Positions 3,307 through 48,978 of a DNA stretch of 51,993 nucleotides are shown here, in pieces. Source of the DNA: a virus. Its lineage: Duplodnaviria; Caudoviricetes. Position 1 is the stretch's first letter. Each line of letters opens with the position of its first letter. The notes beneath the pieces are model-generated. The model made no database searches, was not told the DNA's origin, and saw nothing but the letters and a program-made list of their open reading frames with translations. The DNA lies in the IMG/VR virus record IMGVR_UViG_3300024265_000007, positions 1 through 51,993 of that record; one strand, given 5' to 3'. The position numbers were made by a program, and so were the translations under genes.

Positions 3307-3897
3307 ATGCGTAAGCCAAAGGTATTAAAAACCGATGAGGCATTAGCATATATAGCTAAGCGGATAGGTTCAAACAAAAGATATAATTTCCACCACATGG
3401 ATACTTGGCGGCGACATGGGCGTATTAAACCATATGAAAGAGTCCTATATGTTGGAAACGTTTACACTATAAGAAGCCTGAACGCATTGGCCGATACGCT
3501 TCCGAAACCATCGCCCAACCCCGAATTGGAGAGTGCAACCCGCGCAGAGCTTATAAGCATATTGCCCAATACCTTGACCGATGCCGAATGGCAAAATGCT
3601 CTCAATTACTTTAATGGCTGCTGTGCTGTATGCGGTAGGCAGTTGAACGATATGTTTGGGCAATTTAGAGCGGCAAAAGATCATTGGATACCATTACAGC
3701 ATGGCAAGGACAACCCCGGCACGGTTGTAAAGAACATTGTTCCATTATGTCATGGTGTTGGAGGATGTAATAACCGTAAATATATTTCAATGCCTAACGA
3801 ATGGTTAAAGCGCAAATTTGGAAGGCGCAAGGCGAAACAGATAGCAGCACGAGTGCAAGCATATTTCGATAGTTTAGTACAGGAGAAACAAACATGA
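3307..3897 (+). CDS. HNH endonuclease with N-terminal HTH-like region
   Basis: CCAVCG...DHWIPL...NIVPLCH...CNNRK; AAGGA RBS. Confidence 0.85.
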   Translation: MRKPKVLKTDEALAYIAKRIGSNKRYNFHHMDTWRRHGRIKPYERVLYVGNVYTIRSLNALADTLPKPSPNPELESATRAELISILPNTLTDAEWQNALNYFNGCCAVCGRQLNDMFGQFRAAKDHWIPLQHGKDNPGTVVKNIVPLCHGVGGCNNRKYISMPNEWLKRKFGRRKAKQIAARVQAYFDSLVQEKQT

Positions 3898-5326: not shown

Positions 5327-5508
5327 TGAACGAAACAACACCACCAATTGCGCTAGTGGTCACAATAAGTTTGTTAGGTATAGCGATATTGATAAATTGG
5401 GTCATATTGCTGACAGAATCGAATGGAGGGTTTATTATTTTAGCTATAATAATCTCTGCGCTATTCGGTGCTGCCATTGGCAATTGCCTACATAGGAGGG
5501 CAAAGTGA
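5323..5508 (+). CDS. Small two-TM membrane protein
   Basis: Two hydrophobic helices; GGAGG RBS. Confidence 0.65.
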   Translation: MMNETTPPIALVVTISLLGIAILINWVILLTESNGGFIILAIIISALFGAAIGNCLHRRAK

Positions 5509-7620: not shown

Positions 7621-7986
7621 ATGAAACGTAAACGCAAGAATGGTGAGCAGGCTTTTAGTGGTTGGGTAAAAGATGGGATATATGATAGGTACAAAAAAGA
7701 ACAAAAGATATTCAGCGATGGGTTCGAGGCGACAAGCACAGACGAAAAGGTGCGAGGTTGCGCTGCTATATTTGGGGGACTCACAGGCGCATTTATTATG
7801 CTATGGGTATGTTGTGGGCTTACATTTAGTATGATGTTTGGTTTCAGCAGTTGGATACCAACCATGTTATATTGTGGTGCTTACGTATTAGTATGTACCT
7901 ATGTCGTCAGGCTCTTTATTGGTTGGCTGTACGGGCGATATATTGATGCAATTGATGATACCGAAACCGGCGAAAGCGTGATATAA
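7621..7986 (+). CDS. Membrane protein with basic N-terminus
   Basis: MKRKRKN plus two TM helices; GGAG RBS. Confidence 0.65.
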   Translation: MKRKRKNGEQAFSGWVKDGIYDRYKKEQKIFSDGFEATSTDEKVRGCAAIFGGLTGAFIMLWVCCGLTFSMMFGFSSWIPTMLYCGAYVLVCTYVVRLFIGWLYGRYIDAIDDTETGESVI

Positions 7987-8105
7987 TCAGGGTAGGTTCA
8001 ACAATACAAAAAGCGGCAACCGCGAAGTTGCCGCTTAGGAGGATGTGATGTTTTACCTGTTACTGATAACATAATAGCATAGATTGTGCAGGGAAGGAAT
8101 GTATT

Positions 8106-22676: not shown

Positions 22677-22750
22677 TACGGGATGGAACAGGTGGTCAGT
22701 TCGTCGGTCTCATAATCCGAAGGTCGTAGGTTCGAATCCTACTCCCGTGA
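22677..22750 (+). tRNA. tRNA-Met(CAT), initiator-like; CCA not encoded
   Basis: Acceptor TACGGGA/TCCCGTG, D stem GAAC/GTTC (A11:U24), anticodon arm TCGGT-CTCATAA-TCCGA, T arm GTAGG-TTCGAAT-CCTAC. Confidence 0.9.
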
Positions 22751-22752
22751 CA

Positions 22753-22846
22753 TGGAGAGCAGCACGCCGATAGGTTCAATCCCTATGATACAGTCTGGCG
22801 ATGAGTGACGGGACTTGGTGTGTAGGTTCAATTCCTACCCTCTCCA
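22753..22846 (+). ncRNA. tRNA-like RNA with two T-loop hairpins
   Basis: TGGAGAG/CTCTCCA closing stem; T arm GTAGG-TTCAATT-CCTAC; second ATAGG-TTCAATC-CCTAT where the D arm would be. Confidence 0.6.
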
Positions 22847-23051: not shown

Positions 23052-23094
23052 AAACACCCCGTTCGGCAGATCACCGGGCGGGGTGTTTTTGTTT
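23052..23094. terminator. Terminator at the early/late convergence (possibly bidirectional)
   Basis: AAACACCCCGTTCGG/CCGGGCGGGGTGTTT with a T-rich 3' side and A-rich 5' side. Confidence 0.75.
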
Positions 23095-40489: not shown

Positions 40490-40891
40490 CTACTGCTCAG
40501 TATAGCCAGGCTGTGCGCCTGCTACTACGGAAACGGTGTGGTCAAAGTTCGCTGCGTCATCAATTTGAACGCGAACAAATCGCTTCAATTGCTGGCGGTT
40601 CAAGTACAGAGTTTCGTCGCTGGCAGTTGCGCCAAGATCGGTGAAAGTGTCTGCTTCCCCAGTGCTGGGATTAAACAGGGCAGCAGCCGGAACAGCAGCA
40701 AACGTGCCGCCTGATGTCAGCGAGTGCTCTACGGTGACGGCGAGTGTATCAGAGCCACCAGCGTTTTGAGCAACGTTAAGGAAGATATTCCCAACATACT
40801 TGGAAACATCCAATTCGGCGGATGGTTCTGGATCAGTGTTCACCAGCCCCACAAACAGATTGTCTAGGTCTACTCTAAAGCTAAGAGCCAT
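40490..40891 (-). CDS. Putative capsid decoration protein
   Basis: 133 aa directly after the MCP; LKRFVRV motif. Confidence 0.55.
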   Translation of the reverse strand: MALSFRVDLDNLFVGLVNTDPEPSAELDVSKYVGNIFLNVAQNAGGSDTLAVTVEHSLTSGGTFAAVPAAALFNPSTGEADTFTDLGATASDETLYLNRQQLKRFVRVQIDDAANFDHTVSVVAGAQPGYTEQ

Positions 40892-43215
40892 TAGCGCACC
40901 CCTTTCATGAGATAGAATGCCTCGGGATAGTGGATGAGAATGTCGCTGTAGGTGTAAATGATGATCCGAGCCATTAGTTGATTGGCCAGTGTTACACGGT
41001 CAACAATGATTTCCAAAGCGTCCTGCATGACATATTCAATATAGCGCCATGCTCCGTAGTATATTTCTGATGTGTCGGAACTTGTCCCGGTTGTGTCAGT
41101 TATCGAAAGCTGGTTTGCGATGTGGACTGGATAGCCCAGTAAATCAGGATATGGTTCAACCCCGTAGTTATCACGGTACAGAGGCTCACCAGTTGTCGTT
41201 ATCAAGTTACGATAACGCCCCTGGCTGCGGGTGTGCATGATAAAAGCCTTTGGCTCAGTAGCAGGTATGTTGCTAGTACCAATGCGAACTTCGGCATCAA
41301 CAGCATCGGAGAACTTGGGAGTTCGCCCGTTTGTTGCCAGTGTCTTGATATGAGTTGTTGCTAACGTGGCATCACCCTCAAGCACAGTCTTAACGCCTTT
41401 GATTTCAGCACCGGTATTTGAACCGGTGACAGTGCCCGTGCCAACCAAGATTTCTTTGTCGATTAGAAGCGCGATACTACGAATTGCTTCTTCGCGGATA
41501 GTCTTCTCGACTGACATTGGCGATTGATTCAAAAGCTGAAACGGGATGTGTACCTTGGCCGCAATTGGGCGCAAGAATGCCGTTATGGTGTCAAACTTTC
41601 CTTCATCTTCGACAATATCCACATTAATGCCAGGCCGATACGCTGTCGGAGCGGTTGTCATTTTTGCCTGAACAACCGTAGCAACGCCTTGTGGGACATT
41701 ATTTTGCTGCACGCCAGCCTCAAATGCTACCACATTTTCTCGAAGCGGTGGCAAAATGGTTTCGCGCAATTCCTGCCCTAACAAGTCACCACCCATTGTC
41801 CCGATATACGGGTTTTGGGCCTTGCCATAGAAATCATTGAAATCTCGGCTGAGAGATGACTTGACAAAATCTGCCATTCCTGGTTTTCGTGCCTTGCCGC
41901 CTTGACTTGGAGCTTTGGCCGGATTATTACCCGTGCCATATGCCCCGGCGCGACTTCGCTTGCTTTGTGGTGTGCTGGTTGGCAAAGCGGACTTGAAGGC
42001 GGAATTCACATTCGACCTTTTCTTTTCGATACTGGCGAGGGCGCGGGTAAAGATTTCCCCTGCACTCTTCTCCAACCATGTCTCGGTGCGTCGCCGCGCT
42101 GATTTGGCGGCCTCTTCTTTGTCTTCTTCGTCAGCCGCTTTTACGGCCTCTTCGTCTTCGTCCATCGCTTTGGTTGCTTCTTTGTCTTCTTCGAGCAACT
42201 CTTCGGCAGCCTTCGTCGCCTCTTCTTCGAGTTCCTCTTCGTCAACTGCCTTACCCTCAAGCCCTTCTTCCATCATGCCTTGATCGAGCATAGACAACAG
42301 GCCAGCGACGGCTTCACGGAACACTTGCATGTCCATCTGCTTTACTCCTGATTTATTATGCGAATTTTTAGTTGCATCAATTCCAGGGGCACTACCAGTC
42401 ACGGGGGACTCTGTGGCTGCCGCAGTTAGATCAAATGCTTCAAATAATGATTTCTGATATATTCGTGCTTCTGTACCGTTCGGCTCTGCTGGCATAACCG
42501 TCAGGCTTCCCTCCACTATACCACACTGGTCAATATGTCCGTTGAGCGACACTTCCACAGTGGGAACATATGCGCCTAATGACCATTGATGCTTCACATT
42601 TTCGAGTACAGAATCAACCGCTATCACTGCCAGCGTCGCCTTCTGGGTGATAACTTCCGGCGACAAATTCAAAGACTTGCGTTTGGCAATTTCTTTTAAC
42701 ATGCGTTCGTAATCTTCGCGCTCGTATAACTTGGAGCGTACAAAGATGCCTATATCGTCTTCGTCTACAAACTCAAACACTCCGATTCCAATTGCACCGA
42801 AATCAGTTTTCCCATGTTCATACAGGGAAGGGCCACCCTTAATCGGGAATCCGGCTTCACGCATAAAATTGGTACGCTTACTAAAATGCTGGCTCTCTAT
42901 GTCCTGATCGTCAATTGTCCCATATCGCACTAAATGCCCCTCGGCATATCGAGCGCCACCCACCGACTTGATCGCTATCATTCCGCCGCGATAATGTTTC
43001 ATAGACTTGCCTGGTTGGGGAGACCATTGGTTACTGAGTCCGGTAGCCACAATTTCATCCGGCGAACCCTGCACGATCTGGCAACGGTCTGTTTTTTCGG
43101 CTGACTCGGTGAACCAGCGACAGTTGCCGCAAGTATGCTTGGGGTCGGTGCTTTCGCCGTACTCCGCTTCCTCTTGGGCGAACTTGGAAGACTTATCTTG
43201 GTTTTTTACTTTCAT
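40891..43215 (-). CDS. Polyprotein: HiPIP-like N-domain, prohead protease, acidic scaffold, HK97-fold major capsid protein
   Basis: LYEHG/WSLG/EGSLTVMPAEP protease; KA-DEE acidic repeats; IDKEILVGTG, FIMH, LLGYPV, IYYGAW, PEAF capsid motifs. Confidence 0.88.
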   Translation of the reverse strand: MKVKNQDKSSKFAQEEAEYGESTDPKHTCGNCRWFTESAEKTDRCQIVQGSPDEIVATGLSNQWSPQPGKSMKHYRGGMIAIKSVGGARYAEGHLVRYGTIDDQDIESQHFSKRTNFMREAGFPIKGGPSLYEHGKTDFGAIGIGVFEFVDEDDIGIFVRSKLYEREDYERMLKEIAKRKSLNLSPEVITQKATLAVIAVDSVLENVKHQWSLGAYVPTVEVSLNGHIDQCGIVEGSLTVMPAEPNGTEARIYQKSLFEAFDLTAAATESPVTGSAPGIDATKNSHNKSGVKQMDMQVFREAVAGLLSMLDQGMMEEGLEGKAVDEEELEEEATKAAEELLEEDKEATKAMDEDEEAVKAADEEDKEEAAKSARRRTETWLEKSAGEIFTRALASIEKKRSNVNSAFKSALPTSTPQSKRSRAGAYGTGNNPAKAPSQGGKARKPGMADFVKSSLSRDFNDFYGKAQNPYIGTMGGDLLGQELRETILPPLRENVVAFEAGVQQNNVPQGVATVVQAKMTTAPTAYRPGINVDIVEDEGKFDTITAFLRPIAAKVHIPFQLLNQSPMSVEKTIREEAIRSIALLIDKEILVGTGTVTGSNTGAEIKGVKTVLEGDATLATTHIKTLATNGRTPKFSDAVDAEVRIGTSNIPATEPKAFIMHTRSQGRYRNLITTTGEPLYRDNYGVEPYPDLLGYPVHIANQLSITDTTGTSSDTSEIYYGAWRYIEYVMQDALEIIVDRVTLANQLMARIIIYTYSDILIHYPEAFYLMKGVR

Positions 43216-43311
43216 ACTTCGCTACCTTATTCTTTTGCCGCACGGGAATACGATCTTAGACTACTTCGTTCTTGACTTAACTATAAACAGCATAGCACAT
43301 CTCATCAAAAG

Positions 43312-43320
43312 ATGCTATAA
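43312..43320 (+). promoter_or_regulatory. Extended -10 promoter for the HNH cassette (divergent from the capsid gene)
   Basis: ATGCTATAAT; inverted ATAGCA at about 43292 suggests an overlapping divergent promoter. Confidence 0.55.
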
Positions 43321-43327
43321 TAGCAAT

Positions 43328-43461
43328 GTCACGAGGATTAGAGTTCGAATCTCTTGCCGCCCGAAAAGCGGTTGCAAACGGAGCGCCTCGGCGACAAACA
43401 AAGCAAAAACCCGGTCTGCGAGACCGGGCATTCGTGAGGCGTTTCGTAGTTATTGTGTGAC
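43328..43461 (+). ncRNA. Structured multi-stem RNA with T-loop, leader of the HNH gene
   Basis: GTCAC/GTGAC closing stem; AGAG-TTCGAAT-CTCT; CCGC/GCGG; 12-bp stem 43378-43389/43436-43447; CCCGGTCT/AGACCGGG. Confidence 0.65.
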
Positions 43462-43477
43462 TTGAGGATATTCTATC

Positions 43478-44098
43478 ATGAGTGAAGATAAAAAACAATG
43501 TGTCAAATGCAATGAGTGGAAAGCCATTGATGCGTTTTATGTGCAAAGGCGTTGGTGTAAGCAATGTGTTATTGCTAAAAACACAGCCAAGAAAAAAACA
43601 TGGGCAGCACGCGCTGAAAATAAGGAACGTAGAAAAGCGTATGACCGGGATTATCGCAATCAACCAAAGAATAAAAAACAAAAACGGCTACTTGCAAAAA
43701 AGCGGGGCCCTGCACCATACGATAAGTTACAAAACATAATAAAACGACATAATTACCAGGCCAGAAAAGCTGGATTGCCATATACATTAACAACCGAACA
43801 ATGGCAACATGCTTTGAATTATTTCAATGGGTGTTGTGCTGTTTGTGAGCGTCAACTAAATGACATGTTTGGGGAGTTTACAAAAAGTGCCGATCACTGG
43901 ATACCGCTCAGTTATGAAGGTGGCGATAATCCCGGTACAGTTGCGGAGAATATCATACCGCTTTGTCATGGTGTTGATGGGTGTAATAATTCCAAAGGCG
44001 CAACTCTGCCGATGGAATGGTTACAACAAAAGTTTAGCAGATACAAATCTAAGAAGATAATAGATAAAATACAAAAATATTTCGATAGCCTGAGTTAG
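43478..44098 (+). CDS. HNH endonuclease with N-terminal zinc finger, antisense to the late operon
   Basis: CVKC...CKQC; CCAVCE...DHWIPL...NIIPLCH...CNNSK. Confidence 0.87.
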   Translation: MSEDKKQCVKCNEWKAIDAFYVQRRWCKQCVIAKNTAKKKTWAARAENKERRKAYDRDYRNQPKNKKQKRLLAKKRGPAPYDKLQNIIKRHNYQARKAGLPYTLTTEQWQHALNYFNGCCAVCERQLNDMFGEFTKSADHWIPLSYEGGDNPGTVAENIIPLCHGVDGCNNSKGATLPMEWLQQKFSRYKSKKIIDKIQKYFDSLS

Positions 44099-44155
44099 TC
44101 TATCGAAATATTAAGCGGGAATCCGGTAATATACTTAAACGGGTTGATTATTCGG

Positions 44156-44536
44156 TTATTGGCTATTCATAAAAGTACCAACGCGGCTATCAACATATGC
44201 ACGTCTCATCTTTTTGATTTTATCCATATGATACCCGGCGCTGACACTATCACTATCCAGTGGTGATAGTGATATGTACCATCGCTCATTTGAATACGAA
44301 ACGGCGCTAATACGCTTTATTGTTCCATCTGGTTCGTATTTATTGTCACTATCAACAACCATCACATGCGTCCCGTGTTCCCCTACATCATAGCCGAATT
44401 CTCTTGTAAATCGTTGCCGGACTGGGATTGACTTCCTATCAGCAATTACTCCTTCCATCCTACGCCATGCCACGTTTAGACGGGTGGCTTCTTTCTCTAA
44501 TTGTTCTAGTGTCCAGTATTTATAGTCACTCATCAT
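44156..44536 (-). CDS. Hypothetical protein
   Basis: AGGAG RBS. Confidence 0.6.
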   Translation of the reverse strand: MMSDYKYWTLEQLEKEATRLNVAWRRMEGVIADRKSIPVRQRFTREFGYDVGEHGTHVMVVDSDNKYEPDGTIKRISAVSYSNERWYISLSPLDSDSVSAGYHMDKIKKMRRAYVDSRVGTFMNSQ

Positions 44537-44647
44537 TTACGACTCCTTTGATTGTTATCAATATAAGCTGTGCAATTAGTATCCATCTCTGTACCTTTCG
44601 CTTGATGTTGGTTTAGTCTACTACGTCTATTATACACCATTATACTT

Positions 44648-44902
44648 TTACCAATCTATTGCACGTCCATCTTTTGACTTGTGATATTCAACCGATACGA
44701 CAACGCCATCTCTTTTGTACTGCTCAGTCATGAATAACAGGGAGGGGACTGAGTAGTATGGATACACATACTTGCGTTGCACAAGCATATAATCGTTAGC
44801 TATCTGCGATAGCGGCTCTTCGTTTCGCACATCATTATGGCTATCGCCATAAGCTACTACATCGCCATCAATTACAGCTACCCACTTACCTAATATCATC
44901 AT
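44648..44902 (-). CDS. Small hypothetical protein
   Basis: GKWVAVIDGDVVAYG motif. Confidence 0.55.
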   Translation of the reverse strand: MMILGKWVAVIDGDVVAYGDSHNDVRNEEPLSQIANDYMLVQRKYVYPYYSVPSLLFMTEQYKRDGVVVSVEYHKSKDGRAIDW

Positions 44903-45216
44903 GCCTGCTTTCTCTTCTCTGGATCAATGCGCCGCAAGGTCGCTGGCTTGCCATTGCTACTGGGTTTCACTTTCGCTTTGCGTCTATCCTCTTGCTCCAT
45001 TGCGATAACGGCACTGGCCCGGACTGAAACGGCAATGTCGATTAGAATCAACAACGCGCCACCGGCAGCATACCACACTATGAAGCTGACTAGCCCGATG
45101 AACACAAACCGAATGTCCGGGGACGAAGCCAATAACAATAAGAAGATGGTCAATGTGGCTAAGCCTATAGCCTGAAGTGCATACGCAACAGTTTTGAGAT
45201 TGTTGTATCTATTCAT
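44899..45216 (-). CDS. Two-TM membrane protein
   Basis: Likely start MNRYNN; LLILIDIAVSVR motif. Confidence 0.6.
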   Translation of the reverse strand: MNRYNNLKTVAYALQAIGLATLTIFLLLLASSPDIRFVFIGLVSFIVWYAAGGALLILIDIAVSVRASAVIAMEQEDRRKAKVKPSSNGKPATLRRIDPEKRKQA

Positions 45217-45220
45217 TGGT

Positions 45221-45496
45221 TTATTTCCTTCTCCAAACAACGGTAGATATATGCTTTGTTTCGTCACTTCTATCGTTTTCTAAGACGATGCCGTAGCCTA
45301 TCACCGTATATCCTAGCGACGACTTGTGAGACAGAGACGAAAAGCACCTATTTTTATTCGTCGAGCTTAACGCCGTTTTCTCGCTGTTACCCGGTTGCTC
45401 CATAACTAAAACGGCTTCATTCTCATATGGCGCACCGTCCATGACTTCAACTTTCCAATCTTCTGTACTTCTCATAGGCTGTCCGTTTACTGCCAT
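45221..45496 (-). CDS. Hypothetical protein
   Basis: GAGGAG RBS. Confidence 0.45.
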   Translation of the reverse strand: MAVNGQPMRSTEDWKVEVMDGAPYENEAVLVMEQPGNSEKTALSSTNKNRCFSSLSHKSSLGYTVIGYGIVLENDRSDETKHISTVVWRRK

Positions 45497-45499
45497 CGT

Positions 45500-45730
45500 T
45501 TACTCCTCGTCCCTCTCGCATTCTGTGTTGTGTTTCATTTCTGACGGGAGCATTCGTCCATGCTTGGCAAGATAGTCTTCGCACATAAAACGAATGTCTG
45601 CCACTATATAGTGGCTATCCCATTCATTACCTATGCGATGTAGAATAGCCCCGATCAATTTAAGGTGCTTAGTTGCGGCGCTATCGTTGTCGTTGTGTAT
45701 TATCAATCGCTCATAGTCAAACTTTGCCAT
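45500..45730 (-). CDS. Hypothetical protein
   Basis: GAGGAG RBS. Confidence 0.55.
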   Translation of the reverse strand: MAKFDYERLIIHNDNDSAATKHLKLIGAILHRIGNEWDSHYIVADIRFMCEDYLAKHGRMLPSEMKHNTECERDEE

Positions 45731-45733
45731 CGT

Positions 45734-46108
45734 TTACTCCTCAAACAATTCTGTCAATGGACGGGATATATCATCCGGCTTTGATTCTTGTGCTTTCAAC
45801 AATTTCATATTCTTTGCAAACCTAGCTTTGTAGACTTCAACCATCCGCAAATCAGAAGCTATAGTGTCTTTAATTTCAGCTATTGAATCTTCGTGTGTGT
45901 TGAGTCTTATCTTTTCTTTACTATACCAAGGGTCACTCTCTACATCCTCATATTTATAAAGATGTGAGTTATCGTTTAACTCTTTTCTGATTAGCGAACA
46001 GAGTTCCCCGCTATCATATTCATCGTTTACTTCAACATGTTCTCCAGCGTCATCTATCCAGATAAGCATTACTTCGTTATCTACAAAATATTGACTTGTT
46101 ATTTTCAT
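45734..46108 (-). CDS. Hypothetical protein
   Basis: ATGA overlap with the portal stop. Confidence 0.55.
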   Translation of the reverse strand: MKITSQYFVDNEVMLIWIDDAGEHVEVNDEYDSGELCSLIRKELNDNSHLYKYEDVESDPWYSKEKIRLNTHEDSIAEIKDTIASDLRMVEVYKARFAKNMKLLKAQESKPDDISRPLTELFEE

Positions 46109-48978
46109 TTTGTACCCCCTGCAATTAACTCTTTCATCAATTCCATAATGCTCTTTGTGATGAGCTTCAACTTGCCGCGTGCCTTCGCTTTCACCGGCAC
46201 TAGGTTGCAGTCGCAATTGTCGCCATGACAGGCCAGTGTATCGCTCTGCGGCATTGCGCCTATTTTTACCCAATGCTTGAAGCGGTGGCGTTGGCCGTTG
46301 TAGCCCGAACAGCTTTTACAATGAATCTCGGTTTTTCCAAGGACCCATTCGGACATCTTGTTGCCACCGGCACTGGCGAATCCCGCATCATACATTGGCT
46401 TGACACTCTTATTGTACCATTGAGCGCCTTTACCTTGCGAACTTGTCAGCTTTTCTGATTTTACCGTTCCCAGCAAACTAGTCACGAATTGCGATTGTTC
46501 GGAGATAAACTGGTTTATCTCTACTTGTTCGGCATCGGTTGGCTCTTCGCCCAGAGCGCCGCCGTCGGTTAATCCGTCCCGATATACCTTGTTATTGGCT
46601 TTGCGAATGATACTCCGCAGCGTGGAACTAGCTTGTCGCCGTGTTGTCTTGCCGTCAATGTGGACTTGCAGCGTGTCCTCGAAGTCATCCTCGAAATCAA
46701 TTCGGGTTGCCTGAACGGACTTGATCGCTACCCAGTCCTTAACCATCCCAAAGATAGACTTGACTGTCAGCCCAGATTCTGTCTTGTTGTAACCTTTGAA
46801 CGATTCAATTACTGTGTCTGCAATATCACCGCGAGTGTAATTCGGCTCAAACTTTGGCAGGGACTTTAGTCCGTTTGCACCGCGCCGTTTGATAAACGTA
46901 TACCAAGCATCAAGTTCTTTTTGCGCCTTCTCTACCGACCAGTCCCAATTATCGACAGTCGATTGCGAACGCGCCATAACTGCCTTGACGCAAACCAGAT
47001 TTGACTTTTGGCCAACAACATGAAACTCATCATAATATTCCCGTCCGTAAACAACCCGATCAATCCCCAGAACAAACGGTTCAATCTCAATATCGGGAAT
47101 AGTGACCTCGTTCGGAATATAGGCCATTGTGATGTGAGGATGATAATCGTTCGGGTTGCTATGTTCAGATAATTCCATTCCCTTAAACTTGTCAAATATC
47201 TGGGACTGCAATCTGTCTAATGCAACCGAATTATTGACCACTAAATGGAGGGCTTGCCCATTATCAGTATCGAATATTCCCACTTCTTTAATCTCAAGTG
47301 GATTATCATCCAGCTTAAATTCGTCTATTGAATTGATCGTGCGTGCATCTAATTCCCGATCTGATATGTCCGGGGCATAGACCAATGTTACATGAAAGGT
47401 GTCCGGTTCTTGCCATTCAATATCGGCGGATTCCCCAATGATGCCTTTGATCTTGCGTTGGATTGCCAATAGTTCGTCCCGCTCTGCTAAGTCGATATAG
47501 ACGTATGCTGACTTGTCCTGCGCCTTCGCTTTCAGTGACTCAGGCTCAGTTGGCGAAAAAGGGGGCGGATCATTACCTTCCGGTGGTAAGTCTGGCAAAT
47601 CGCCACCTTCAACATCAGAAGTCTGTGCGACTACCGCCGCTTCTTCTGGCGTTCCACCGGCAACAAAACCGGACTTCAGGTCTTCAGGTGAAACAAAGAC
47701 CATGCCCGGTTGCACCATTAACAGATTGCCACGCTCCTCTTCAAATGGCTCTAATTTTTGCCGCTTCCTTGCTTCATTGATTGTGATGATTGTATTCTGT
47801 AAATTCCTCCCGGCAATCTCCGCTTCGCGGAGGTCATTCTCACTCACCCGGTCAAACTCAGAGCGGTCTACTACTAACCTATCCAGATGATATTCGGGAG
47901 GTAGTAGCGGAATAATACGACGATTGAAAAATGCGATAATGTCATCGGCGCGCGGGATAATATTGCTAGTATAGAAGCGGTAGGTTGTCTCGTCACCTTG
48001 CTTGTATCCTGCTATATCGCTATTACCCAGCATTGTTTCCGGTACGCCAAACTGATTTAATATTCGCTCACCTGTCTTTTGCGAATAGGAGGTGATTGCG
48101 CTATAATCAGGATAATCTAATTTTGTAACCTCAACATCGCCCGGCCAAAATATAAGGCCACCAACGTTTTCGGGTCCGCGTGACCTCTTTTTTGCATCTT
48201 CCAGCCCTTCGCGTGTCGCCTGTAAATTACTAAACGAGCCACCTTTTGACGAGACGACTCCCATGCCCTGAATGCCGTTTTGGAAATGAGATACAACTGA
48301 TGTCTGGATAGCGAAATCAATTTCCAGACTTTCCAGGACGGCCAGCACATCAGGGTAGCCGCGTAAATCATCTTGAGGATTGTAGCCATGCTTATAGGCA
48401 ATCTCGAACGGTTTATACGTCTCTGGACTGCCAGTGTCAAACGGTGAATAGAAATACTGATTGACTTTCCCATTGGACGCATTAAGAGACACCCCCAGTG
48501 GATTCAGCCAGTCAAGGGCGAGCAGGGGATTATATTTACTGACTGGATAATCATCACGCTTGCGAACGAGTTCAATATACAATTCGTCAAATAGTGTGAG
48601 GGAGGCCGCCACACGGAACAGGAGCGACATATGTTGATGGTCTTCATAGGCATGGAACAGTTGGAAGAGGGGATGCTGGGGAATAGGATCGTCACTTCTA
48701 GCAACTTCTGTGCCCTCCCATTTATCATTAGCTCCGGTCATGCCCCGTTCAAATCGTTTGATTGAATAGGGCAGGGTGTTTATGCCGGACGCGATTAGCT
48801 CCACACATTTTTCCACATAGCCGATCACGATATATGCTTGGGCCGCACCCCATTTTGTACGCGATAATTGATCCCCTCTATTAGCAGCGTTTACCCAGGG
48901 AGCAAGGGGCGACCAGGTGCCCAGGTCGATTGATTTCTGCACGGTGCTTGGCCGCTTTGTTTTAGTATTCCATTTCAT
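46105..48978 (-). CDS. Portal protein fused to a 2H phosphoesterase and a MuF-like head morphogenesis domain
   Basis: Portal: VEKCVELIASGI, LDWLNP, FGVPETMLG, ITINEAR. 2H: FHVTL and YHPHITMAY. MuF-like: EWVLG..EIHCKSC...CHGDNCDC. Confidence 0.87.
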   Translation of the reverse strand: MKWNTKTKRPSTVQKSIDLGTWSPLAPWVNAANRGDQLSRTKWGAAQAYIVIGYVEKCVELIASGINTLPYSIKRFERGMTGANDKWEGTEVARSDDPIPQHPLFQLFHAYEDHQHMSLLFRVAASLTLFDELYIELVRKRDDYPVSKYNPLLALDWLNPLGVSLNASNGKVNQYFYSPFDTGSPETYKPFEIAYKHGYNPQDDLRGYPDVLAVLESLEIDFAIQTSVVSHFQNGIQGMGVVSSKGGSFSNLQATREGLEDAKKRSRGPENVGGLIFWPGDVEVTKLDYPDYSAITSYSQKTGERILNQFGVPETMLGNSDIAGYKQGDETTYRFYTSNIIPRADDIIAFFNRRIIPLLPPEYHLDRLVVDRSEFDRVSENDLREAEIAGRNLQNTIITINEARKRQKLEPFEEERGNLLMVQPGMVFVSPEDLKSGFVAGGTPEEAAVVAQTSDVEGGDLPDLPPEGNDPPPFSPTEPESLKAKAQDKSAYVYIDLAERDELLAIQRKIKGIIGESADIEWQEPDTFHVTLVYAPDISDRELDARTINSIDEFKLDDNPLEIKEVGIFDTDNGQALHLVVNNSVALDRLQSQIFDKFKGMELSEHSNPNDYHPHITMAYIPNEVTIPDIEIEPFVLGIDRVVYGREYYDEFHVVGQKSNLVCVKAVMARSQSTVDNWDWSVEKAQKELDAWYTFIKRRGANGLKSLPKFEPNYTRGDIADTVIESFKGYNKTESGLTVKSIFGMVKDWVAIKSVQATRIDFEDDFEDTLQVHIDGKTTRRQASSTLRSIIRKANNKVYRDGLTDGGALGEEPTDAEQVEINQFISEQSQFVTSLLGTVKSEKLTSSQGKGAQWYNKSVKPMYDAGFASAGGNKMSEWVLGKTEIHCKSCSGYNGQRHRFKHWVKIGAMPQSDTLACHGDNCDCNLVPVKAKARGKLKLITKSIMELMKELIAGGTK

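Follow-up and report, generated by a model that had tools for sequence, protein, structure and literature searches.

Genes and features at the HNH locus

The DNA analysed here (the window; IMG/VR record IMGVR_UViG_3300024265_000007, 51,993 bp) is the complete genome of an uncultured virus, with direct terminal repeats at its ends. Its plus strand carries at 43478-44098 a gene for an HNH endonuclease of 206 amino acids (aa), preceded at 43328-43461 by a predicted structured leader of 134 nucleotides (nt). The gene layout is ordinary, and the unusual part of the locus is the leader, which is tRNA-like. By our reading its T-loop hairpin is a tRNA relic or mimic with a YrlA-like permuted topology. 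For the locus as a whole we give about an even chance to one reading, that of a free-standing cassette of the HNH homing type that combines a cis-acting tRNA-derived 5' module with a strand insulator.

The leader is closed in predicted folds by GTCAC (43328-43332) and GTGAC (43457-43461), and two domains can be told apart within it on the plus strand. Domain I, the putative tRNA-derived module (43329-43372), consists of TCACG, AGGAT and then (T)AGAG-TTCGAAT-CTCT(T) with a G53-C61 closing pair; it holds the T-arm AGAG-TTCGAAT-CTCT (43340-43354) and a CCGC-CCGAAAA-GCGG hairpin (43357-43371), which stands where the acceptor arm would be. Domain II (43378-43447) is a long hairpin made of a 12-bp stem with two G-U pairs (43378-43389/43436-43447), an A-rich internal loop and a GC-rich tip of 8 bp, with the A-rich run at 43395-43409 and the 8-bp hairpin at 43410-43428. 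An extended -10 element, TGcTATAAT (43313-43321), lies seven bases ahead of the first paired base of the leader. The ribosome-binding site (RBS) GAGGA (43464-43468), unpaired in the main fold, lies nine bases ahead of the ATG at 43478. Every one of these elements, from the extended -10 to the HNH open reading frame (ORF), had been listed in an earlier note made from the letters of this DNA, and all were found again at the positions that it gave. That note missed the tRNA-like character of the T-loop hairpin, and also that the terminal hairpin serves the other strand.

The surroundings form a minus-strand block of late genes that includes the portal gene (46105-48978), several small genes and a capsid-domain gene (40891-43215, minus strand), whose product of 774 aa has an HK97-type capsid domain at its C-terminus. 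The HNH ORF is the sole plus-strand gene within this block. Minus-strand genes at 44156-48978 lie upstream of the minus-strand terminator predicted at 43400-43429.

Conservation of the cassette

Searches of JGI metagenomes gave nine loci. The sole syntenic relative, L008, is a contig of 3.8 kb. It encodes a portal fragment 77% identical to the window and a homologue of a small gene, and its HNH gene (682-1308) is antisense to the genes around it. The two HNH proteins are 57% identical, and the third codon positions of their genes agree at 43% (49% at conserved residues). In the non-coding DNA, identity is 65% over the leftmost block of the cassette (43251-43312) and 71% over the stretch 43328-43354, which holds the closing strand and the T-arm. 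The alignment runs from the -10 element through the T-arm and contains one compensatory change in the T-stem (A-U to G-C). At the right edge a conserved non-coding stretch (44115-44151) matches the DNA downstream of the L008 HNH gene at 29/37 positions. The 35 nt beside the capsid start are only 33% identical, and the genes that flank the locus in L008, on the left (61-396) and on the right (1716-2177 and 2192-2464), have no homologue in the window. Conservation thus covers about 43251-44151 and stops short of the neighbouring genes, which differ to the left and to the right, so that this unit behaves as a cassette. The self-contained cassette proposed in the earlier note is thereby borne out, with the promoter, the leader, the HNH gene and about 40 nt downstream all conserved in L008. 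Judged by the third codon positions, the promoter and the T-arm part of the leader are more constrained than neutral sites.

The phage lineage is rare. A DNA search of GenBank phages gave no match, nor did the capsid protein when compared with phages, and the HNH protein matched only Gordonia phage GAL1 (33% identity over half of the query). IMG/VR yielded nothing with the capsid, nothing with an alignment of the portal and 0 matches with a back-translated HNH motif; the HNH protein itself found two loci there, and then two more distant ones. A DNA pattern of the conserved block had 0 matches in IMG/VR and 0 in GTDB contigs, and the HNH profile found none in GTDB contigs.

Two other matters came up in the same genome. 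The portal gene (46105-48978, minus strand) contains a 2H phosphoesterase domain inserted at about residues 500-650 (about 47030-47480), of the LigT / 2'-5' RNA ligase-like type and with a weak match to anti-CBASS Acb1; the L008 portal is without it, its residues 117 and 153 aligning to window 47608 and 47010. As part of the portal, an enzyme that processes nucleotides or RNA ends would be packaged in the virion. A reading as an attP core was dropped: neither a tyrosine integrase nor a serine resolvase-type recombinase came up in profile searches covering the complete 52-kb genome, and the ends of that genome are direct terminal repeats.

Predicted promoters and signals on both strands

The extended -10 element at 43313-43321 is a predicted plus-strand promoter. 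L008 has TGtTACAAT at the same 7-nt distance from its leader, and TGNTATAAT is over-represented genome-wide (7 copies, 2.76 expected; 1/100 shuffles reaches 7). The -35/-10 promoter scan did not call this site because there is no usable -35, only the extended -10. The same scan called an outward promoter-like site on the minus strand, TTGATG-17-TATAGT (43308->43280), which faces the capsid gene and lies in the conserved left block. Within it an extended -10-like TGCTATGCT (43298->43290, minus strand) was picked out by eye from the alignment, its L008 match being TGGTATACT.

On the late-gene (minus) strand the terminator scan predicted an intrinsic terminator at 43429->43400, GCCCGGTCTCGCAGACCGGGT then TTTTGCTTTG, with 9 pairs, of which 6 are G-C, and a loop of 3. 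The 8-bp hairpin that follows the A-rich run of the leader is thus, on that strand, the tip of a predicted intrinsic terminator. Equivalents are present in the L008 leader (646->623) and in L011 (1526->1502), another locus with an HNH homologue, and the best Rfam match in the region is a partial 'rnk leader' on the minus strand, which covers the terminator among other things. We infer that the plus-strand promoter fires and that the leader RNA exists, and also that the terminator and the outward promoter insulate the cassette.

At the other end, a 13-bp inverted repeat (44076-44112) spans the stop codon of the HNH gene and is followed by a T-rich run on the minus strand. The terminator scan did not call this repeat, which has an 11-nt loop and an AT-rich stem; it may be a second, weak terminator of the late strand at the other end of the cassette.

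Predicted fold of the leader

The outer stem, the 12-bp stem and the 8-bp hairpin are present in both the minimum free energy (MFE) and the centroid fold. In the full leader the outer stem has a pair probability of 0.9, and the pairs of the 12-bp stem and the 8-bp hairpin are mostly at about 1.0, with terminal pairs at 0.91 and 0.81. A fragment of 137 nt was more stable than all of its shuffles (z -3.28, 0/200 as stable) and one of 159 nt than most (z -2.22, 4/200), whereas the opposite strand folded more weakly (z -1.23, 23/200). The 12-bp stem and the 8-bp hairpin account for most of the stability. The long stem is a feature of the plus strand because its G-U pairs would become C-A mismatches on the other strand; together with the stronger plus-strand z-score, these pairs favour the plus strand as the RNA strand. 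A second copy of the leader was not found in the genome.

A different closure is predicted in the nascent RNA only. In thermodynamic predictions CGAGG (43332-43336) pairs with CCUCG (43386-43390) at a probability of 0.97-0.99 when the RNA ends at 43400 or 43432, and at 0.0 in the full leader. This compact closure (43332-43390) is the counterpart of the L008 closing stem, and the 12-bp stem is predicted to displace it once the 3' strand has been made. Folded in isolation, the 70-nt piece with the compact closure was no better than shuffles (z 0.07).

Such exclusive folds would allow a translational or conformational switch that restrains the nuclease, in which either the change from the compact closure to the 12-bp stem or a leaderless upstream ORF of 44 codons (43326-43460) gates translation of the HNH gene. 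The CCUCG strand can indeed pair with CGAGG while the RNA is nascent (P 0.98) or with its 12-bp stem partner in the full RNA, the upstream ORF ends 4 nt before GAGGA, and T4 homing endonuclease genes are often restrained by leader hairpins (Edgell, Gibb & Belfort 2010, PMC2988022). However, the RBS is unpaired in both predicted states of the window leader and lies outside the fold in L008 as well, where the domains are independent and no switch is predicted. The upstream ORF was dropped as a candidate: in L008 there is no ATG at its start and the frame is shifted by an indel, so that it has no counterpart there. We therefore consider a switch very unlikely, and the suggestion made in the earlier note that the leader restrains translation of a toxic nuclease is not supported by the position of the RBS.

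A tRNA-like module at the 5' end

The stretch 43329-43365 reads as tRNA positions 39-73 with a canonical T-arm. The 13-mer GAGTTCGAATCTC, which is the exact T-arm, has one copy in the genome and appears in 0/100 shuffles; at two mismatches it is not rare (0.93 expected). T-arm-like hairpins as a class number 6 in the window against 0.675 expected, and 0/200 resamples reach 6.

The L008 leader is more complete. In its MFE fold the segment 517-605 forms a perfect 7-bp closing stem, the T-arm GGAG-UUCAAAU-CUCC, a long closed hairpin and a D-arm, GCUC-AAUCAGGUA-GAGC. This is the layout of a circularly permuted (back-to-front) tRNA cloverleaf, as in YrlA RNAs, and by reading of the sequence U8, A14, A15 with U48, G18-G19 and the T-loop residues are in place. 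When the L008 module was rotated, that is, when a script placed its 5' half first, ARAGORN called a 76-nt tRNA at a relaxed threshold and did so for 0/300 rotated random pieces of the window. The window copy retains the T-arm, the short hairpin and the closing stem. Its D-arm is absent, and no D-arm pattern was found near the locus, which leaves the T-arm as the one canonical arm of the cloverleaf; ARAGORN called a tRNA in none of three rotated versions of this leader. In L008 the entire module precedes the HNH gene, and in the window no D-arm-like sequence comes after that gene. A matching 5' tRNA half was looked for elsewhere in the window (complement of the acceptor strand, D-arm pattern), with nothing convincing found. 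The only tRNA that ARAGORN finds in the window is a tRNA-Met at 22677, and Rfam gave no tRNA and no HEARO match over 42800-44600 at E <= 10.

A search of IMG/VR with the pattern TCACGRG..GAGTTCRAATCTC returned 25 loci. ARAGORN places a tRNA over the match in 17 of them, and the other 8 read as tRNA 3' halves or fragments; none resembles the leader element. These loci bear on a serious, though in our view rather unlikely, alternative, namely that the module is an inert relic. The T-arm stretch would then be the functionless remains of one or two tRNA genes beside the HNH gene (a tandem pair, each half deleted), and the rest of the leader a packed terminator with promoters. The window does hold a 3' tRNA half only, the leader is recognised by no model, and an odd tRNA-like cluster lies elsewhere in the same phage (22660-23095). 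Adjacent tRNAs, moreover, can mimic the YrlA pattern (Chen et al. 2014, PMC4201824). Against an inert relic stand the identity between the window and L008, which at 71% in the T-arm block exceeds the 43-49% of synonymous sites, the compensatory change in the T-stem, the promoter held at the same 7-nt distance in both phages, and the perfect 7-bp closing stem of L008, which is longer than a shared anticodon stem would give.

The cluster just mentioned is non-coding and follows a plus-strand gene. It begins with the tRNA-Met (22677-22751), followed by two T-arm-like hairpins (both TAGG/CCTA) at 22771 and 22823; the segment 22753-22845 is closed by GGAGAG/CTCTCC, a tRNA-5'-half-like stretch starts at about 22905, and a terminator lies at about 23071-23092. 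Model matches were weak (YrlA 16.1 bits, E 0.037; permuted tmRNA 18.1 bits, E 0.14), and ARAGORN called only the tRNA-Met. These pieces may be non-canonical tRNA-like RNAs.

The completeness of the L008 module also raises the alternative of a trans-acting small RNA that mimics a tRNA. It would have its own promoter, be cut from the HNH message and act, YrlA-like and without a phage Ro, on host factors, either as a decoy for tRNA-directed enzymes or nucleases or together with host Ro60/Rsr, and it would simply accompany the HNH gene. The YrlA topology of the L008 module with its conserved tRNA residues fits this, and YrlA RNAs are known in phages (PMC4201824). However, no plus-strand terminator was found by the terminator scan between the module and the HNH gene, the window has lost the D-arm, and TROVE/Ro60 (PF05731) has 0 matches in the complete phage genome, while control genomes matched as expected. 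A Ro-binding extended helix is also missing, because the RNA would begin at the closing stem. We regard a trans-acting small RNA as improbable. A related proposal, which we hold to be similarly doubtful, is that of a Ro-independent, promoter-driven, back-to-front tRNA mimic that is functional in itself and moves as a unit with the mobile HNH gene, the window showing a slimmed version with T-arm and closing stem. Such a mimic could engage anticodon nucleases or host enzymes that recognise tRNA, as a decoy or as a handle, or it could be a cofactor that couples expression or activity of the HNH protein to the host tRNA machinery.

The HNH protein and its family

The 206-aa protein has a zinc-ribbon-like CxxC...CxxC motif in its N-terminal part and an HNH domain (D139 H140...N158...C163, C169 N170) in its C-terminal part, with a basic linker between them; the N-terminal half is very basic. 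It matched PHROG 1035 (E 1.9e-18) and PHROG 8660 (E 3e-9), which are endonuclease VII/HNH families, and the family profile matched a solved HNH endonuclease, PDB 4h9d (E 4.4e-4). Pfam gave nothing on the protein itself, even at E <= 10; PF01844, PF14279 or PF13392 are present in some of its homologues, of which 221 were found, the closest (P0002) being 59% identical. D139, H140, N158, C163, C169 and N170 are invariant in an alignment of 20 sequences. Both the catalytic D-H...N and Cys/Asn motif and the profile matches are thus those of an HNH (beta-beta-alpha-Me) endonuclease. IscB-type proteins combine RuvC and HNH domains and have about 400-500 aa. The profile-search matches of the 206-aa protein were of HNH/endonuclease VII type only, with no RuvC nuclease family among them. 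Its size, its profile matches and the lack of a HEARO match at the locus bear out the statement of the earlier note that the protein is not IscB; this HNH enzyme is probably of the free-standing homing type.

In the family alignment a basic repeat of about 11-13 aa (e.g. REYYKQNKDTI) occurs in one to many copies between the zinc-ribbon-like motif and the HNH domain. These repeats may form a modular DNA-binding array of varying length. The window also encodes an HNH paralogue of 196 aa (3307-3897, plus strand) that shares the C-terminal nuclease domain (66% identical over half of the query) and has a different N-terminal half. It lies in an early-looking plus-strand block and is preceded only by a terminator-like hairpin.

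The earlier note had offered, as one of two options, that the leader is the RNA partner of a small HNH ribonucleoprotein or mobile element. In the upstream regions of the 10 homologue loci with at least 200 nt upstream, a T-arm-like hairpin was found once, in L008. ARAGORN found no tRNA in 13 loci (L004-L016), Rfam gave no tRNA or YrlA match in the 12 loci other than L008, and blastn with the leader had L008 as its sole match. No comparable RNA was found upstream of the paralogue at 3307-3897. What other members share is simpler: L009-L011 and L013, from two other lineages, have an extended -10 TGGTATAAT and a leader hairpin in common, and L009-L011 a AGGATATT-like ribosome-binding region. On this sample the leader RNA is not a general partner of the HNH family.

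A role of the leader as partner or guide of a small HNH ribonucleoprotein is accordingly the most improbable of the alternatives. It would accord with the co-conservation of RNA and gene in two phages and with the very basic N-terminal half of the protein. Set against these are the single T-arm among the homologue loci, the paralogue of the window, which has no such RNA, the lack of a HEARO match, and the resemblance of the family to ordinary homing HNH enzymes with a zinc ribbon and variable DNA-binding-like repeats. A guide-like variable segment is not definable from two sequences.

One homologue locus gave an observation apart. On L006, an unrelated IMG/VR contig with an HNH homologue, a near-threshold fluoride riboswitch match lies at 5374-5451 on the minus strand (31.5 bits against a gathering score of 34, E 5.7e-5).

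Proposed mechanism

In the cassette reading favoured here, the unit at about 43251-44151 would sit antisense inside the late block that runs from portal to capsid. At its left end two promoter elements would stand back to back, one directed toward the capsid gene and the other (TGcTATAAT) starting the leader-HNH RNA. The first 134 nt or so of this RNA would fold into the two domains, followed by the free RBS and the HNH ORF. Domain I would be an anticodon-less tRNA mimic turned back to front, with a T-arm, a short closed hairpin at the place of the acceptor arm and a closing stem at that of the anticodon stem. L008 would still hold the whole mimic including the D-arm, which the window copy appears to have lost. 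Acting in cis, Domain I may provide a compact 5' end, a handle for stability or for processing by enzymes that recognise the tRNA elbow. This role is plausible because 5'-terminal stem-loops protect bacterial mRNAs. It is plausible also because YrlA RNAs are handled by TruB, DusA and RNase P (PMC4201824). The GC-rich tip of Domain II, read on the other strand, would terminate late transcription that has crossed the HNH gene antisense, and the outward promoter in the conserved block would then restart transcription of the capsid gene. In this reading the leader is not a guide RNA.

Several results weigh against this reading. On the side of the tRNA likeness, the pair probabilities of the T-arm (0.36) and of CCGC/GCGG (0.31) in the full leader are low, and no HEARO, tRNA or YrlA model recognises the window leader. 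YrlA is the sole Rfam match in the L008 module, at 19.6 bits (E 0.1) where the gathering score is 69, and matches as weak as this turn up in 13/14 control genomes; at its default threshold ARAGORN leaves even the rotated L008 module uncalled. Downstream of the T-arm, identity to the L008 leader is only about 40%, and because the D-arm is not conserved the selected feature is less than a tRNA mimic. Only two sequences, the window and L008, carry the tRNA-like leader, which leaves covariation almost powerless. As to mobility, the empty sites that the earlier note had proposed to look for were not found: no HNH-less allele turned up in IMG/VR, GenBank phages, GTDB or the probable source run, and the one relative found bears the gene. 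In that DNA run, probably the source of the sequence, a single contig matched 42300-45300 without a difference, and no junction bypassing the cassette was seen.

The insulator has its own counter-evidence. The HNH genes of L011 and L013 point the same way as the genes around them, yet L011 retains the antisense-terminator-like hairpin. A plus-strand site at about 7979-8045, within a plus-strand gene block, has TGATATAAT, an A-run, a GC-rich hairpin (AGCGGCAAC...GTTGCCGCT) and AGGAGG, which is the same order of promoter, A-run, hairpin and RBS as in the HNH leader. Because L011 is co-directional and 7979-8045 lies in a plus-strand block, the hairpin may act also, or instead, on the sense RNA.

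A functional tRNA-derived leader would be a further instance of tRNA mimicry in cis within a phage mRNA, here linked to a mobile nuclease gene, and would extend the permuted fold of the YrlA type beyond Ro60 partners. If the leader is no more than a relic, what remains at the locus is an ordinary homing endonuclease gene of the free-standing type. The layout would be a compact natural example of how a selfish gene can occupy an essential late operon in reverse orientation and still leave the capsid gene supplied with transcription, by means of a terminator for the host strand and an outward promoter.

Comparison with known systems

A literature search returned no title or abstract on a tRNA-like leader of an HNH gene; the supplementary lists of phage YrlA RNAs of Chen et al. 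2014 were outside that search. A passage search of PMC10690425 found neither HNH nor T-loop mentioned.

The closest parallels to the layout are the free-standing homing endonuclease genes of T4-type phages (PMC2988022), in which an endonuclease gene lies between essential genes and the cassette can supply promoters for the downstream host gene. In T4, segD lies between the capsid genes 23 and 24 in antisense orientation and is flanked by a terminator on either side, and in seg43(25) a very stable hairpin ends right before an unsequestered RBS (Edgell, Gibb & Belfort 2010, PMC2988022). The window locus resembles segD in its antisense position beside a capsid gene and in its predicted terminator, with a possible second one at the other end, and seg43(25) in the hairpin before a free RBS. 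It differs from segD in that its enzyme is of the HNH and not the GIY-YIG type, and in having its own extended -10, none having been found for segD. From the T4 homing genes in general it differs in the tRNA-derived T-arm module that its leader appears to bear, and its own homing is putative, no empty site having been found.

HEARO and the omega-RNAs of IscB likewise are structured RNAs beside an ORF with an HNH domain. Here, in contrast, there is no Rfam match to them at E <= 10, the protein is an HNH-only one of 206 aa, and the RNA is not conserved across the protein family. Phage tRNA genes and fragments are matched by 43329-43365, with its reading as tRNA 39-73 and its canonical T-arm, but the window has no D-arm, anticodon loop or 5' acceptor strand there, and neither ARAGORN nor Rfam calls a tRNA.

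The likeness to YrlA (RF02553; Chen et al. 2014, PMC4201824) consists in the closing stem, the T-arm, the closed acceptor-like hairpin and the D-arm, complete in L008 and partial in the window. In contrast to YrlA, the phage has no Ro60/TROVE gene anywhere and the RNA no Ro-binding helix, the L008 score is far below gathering and the window leader has no match, and the tRNA-like module is here the 5' leader of a predicted mRNA.

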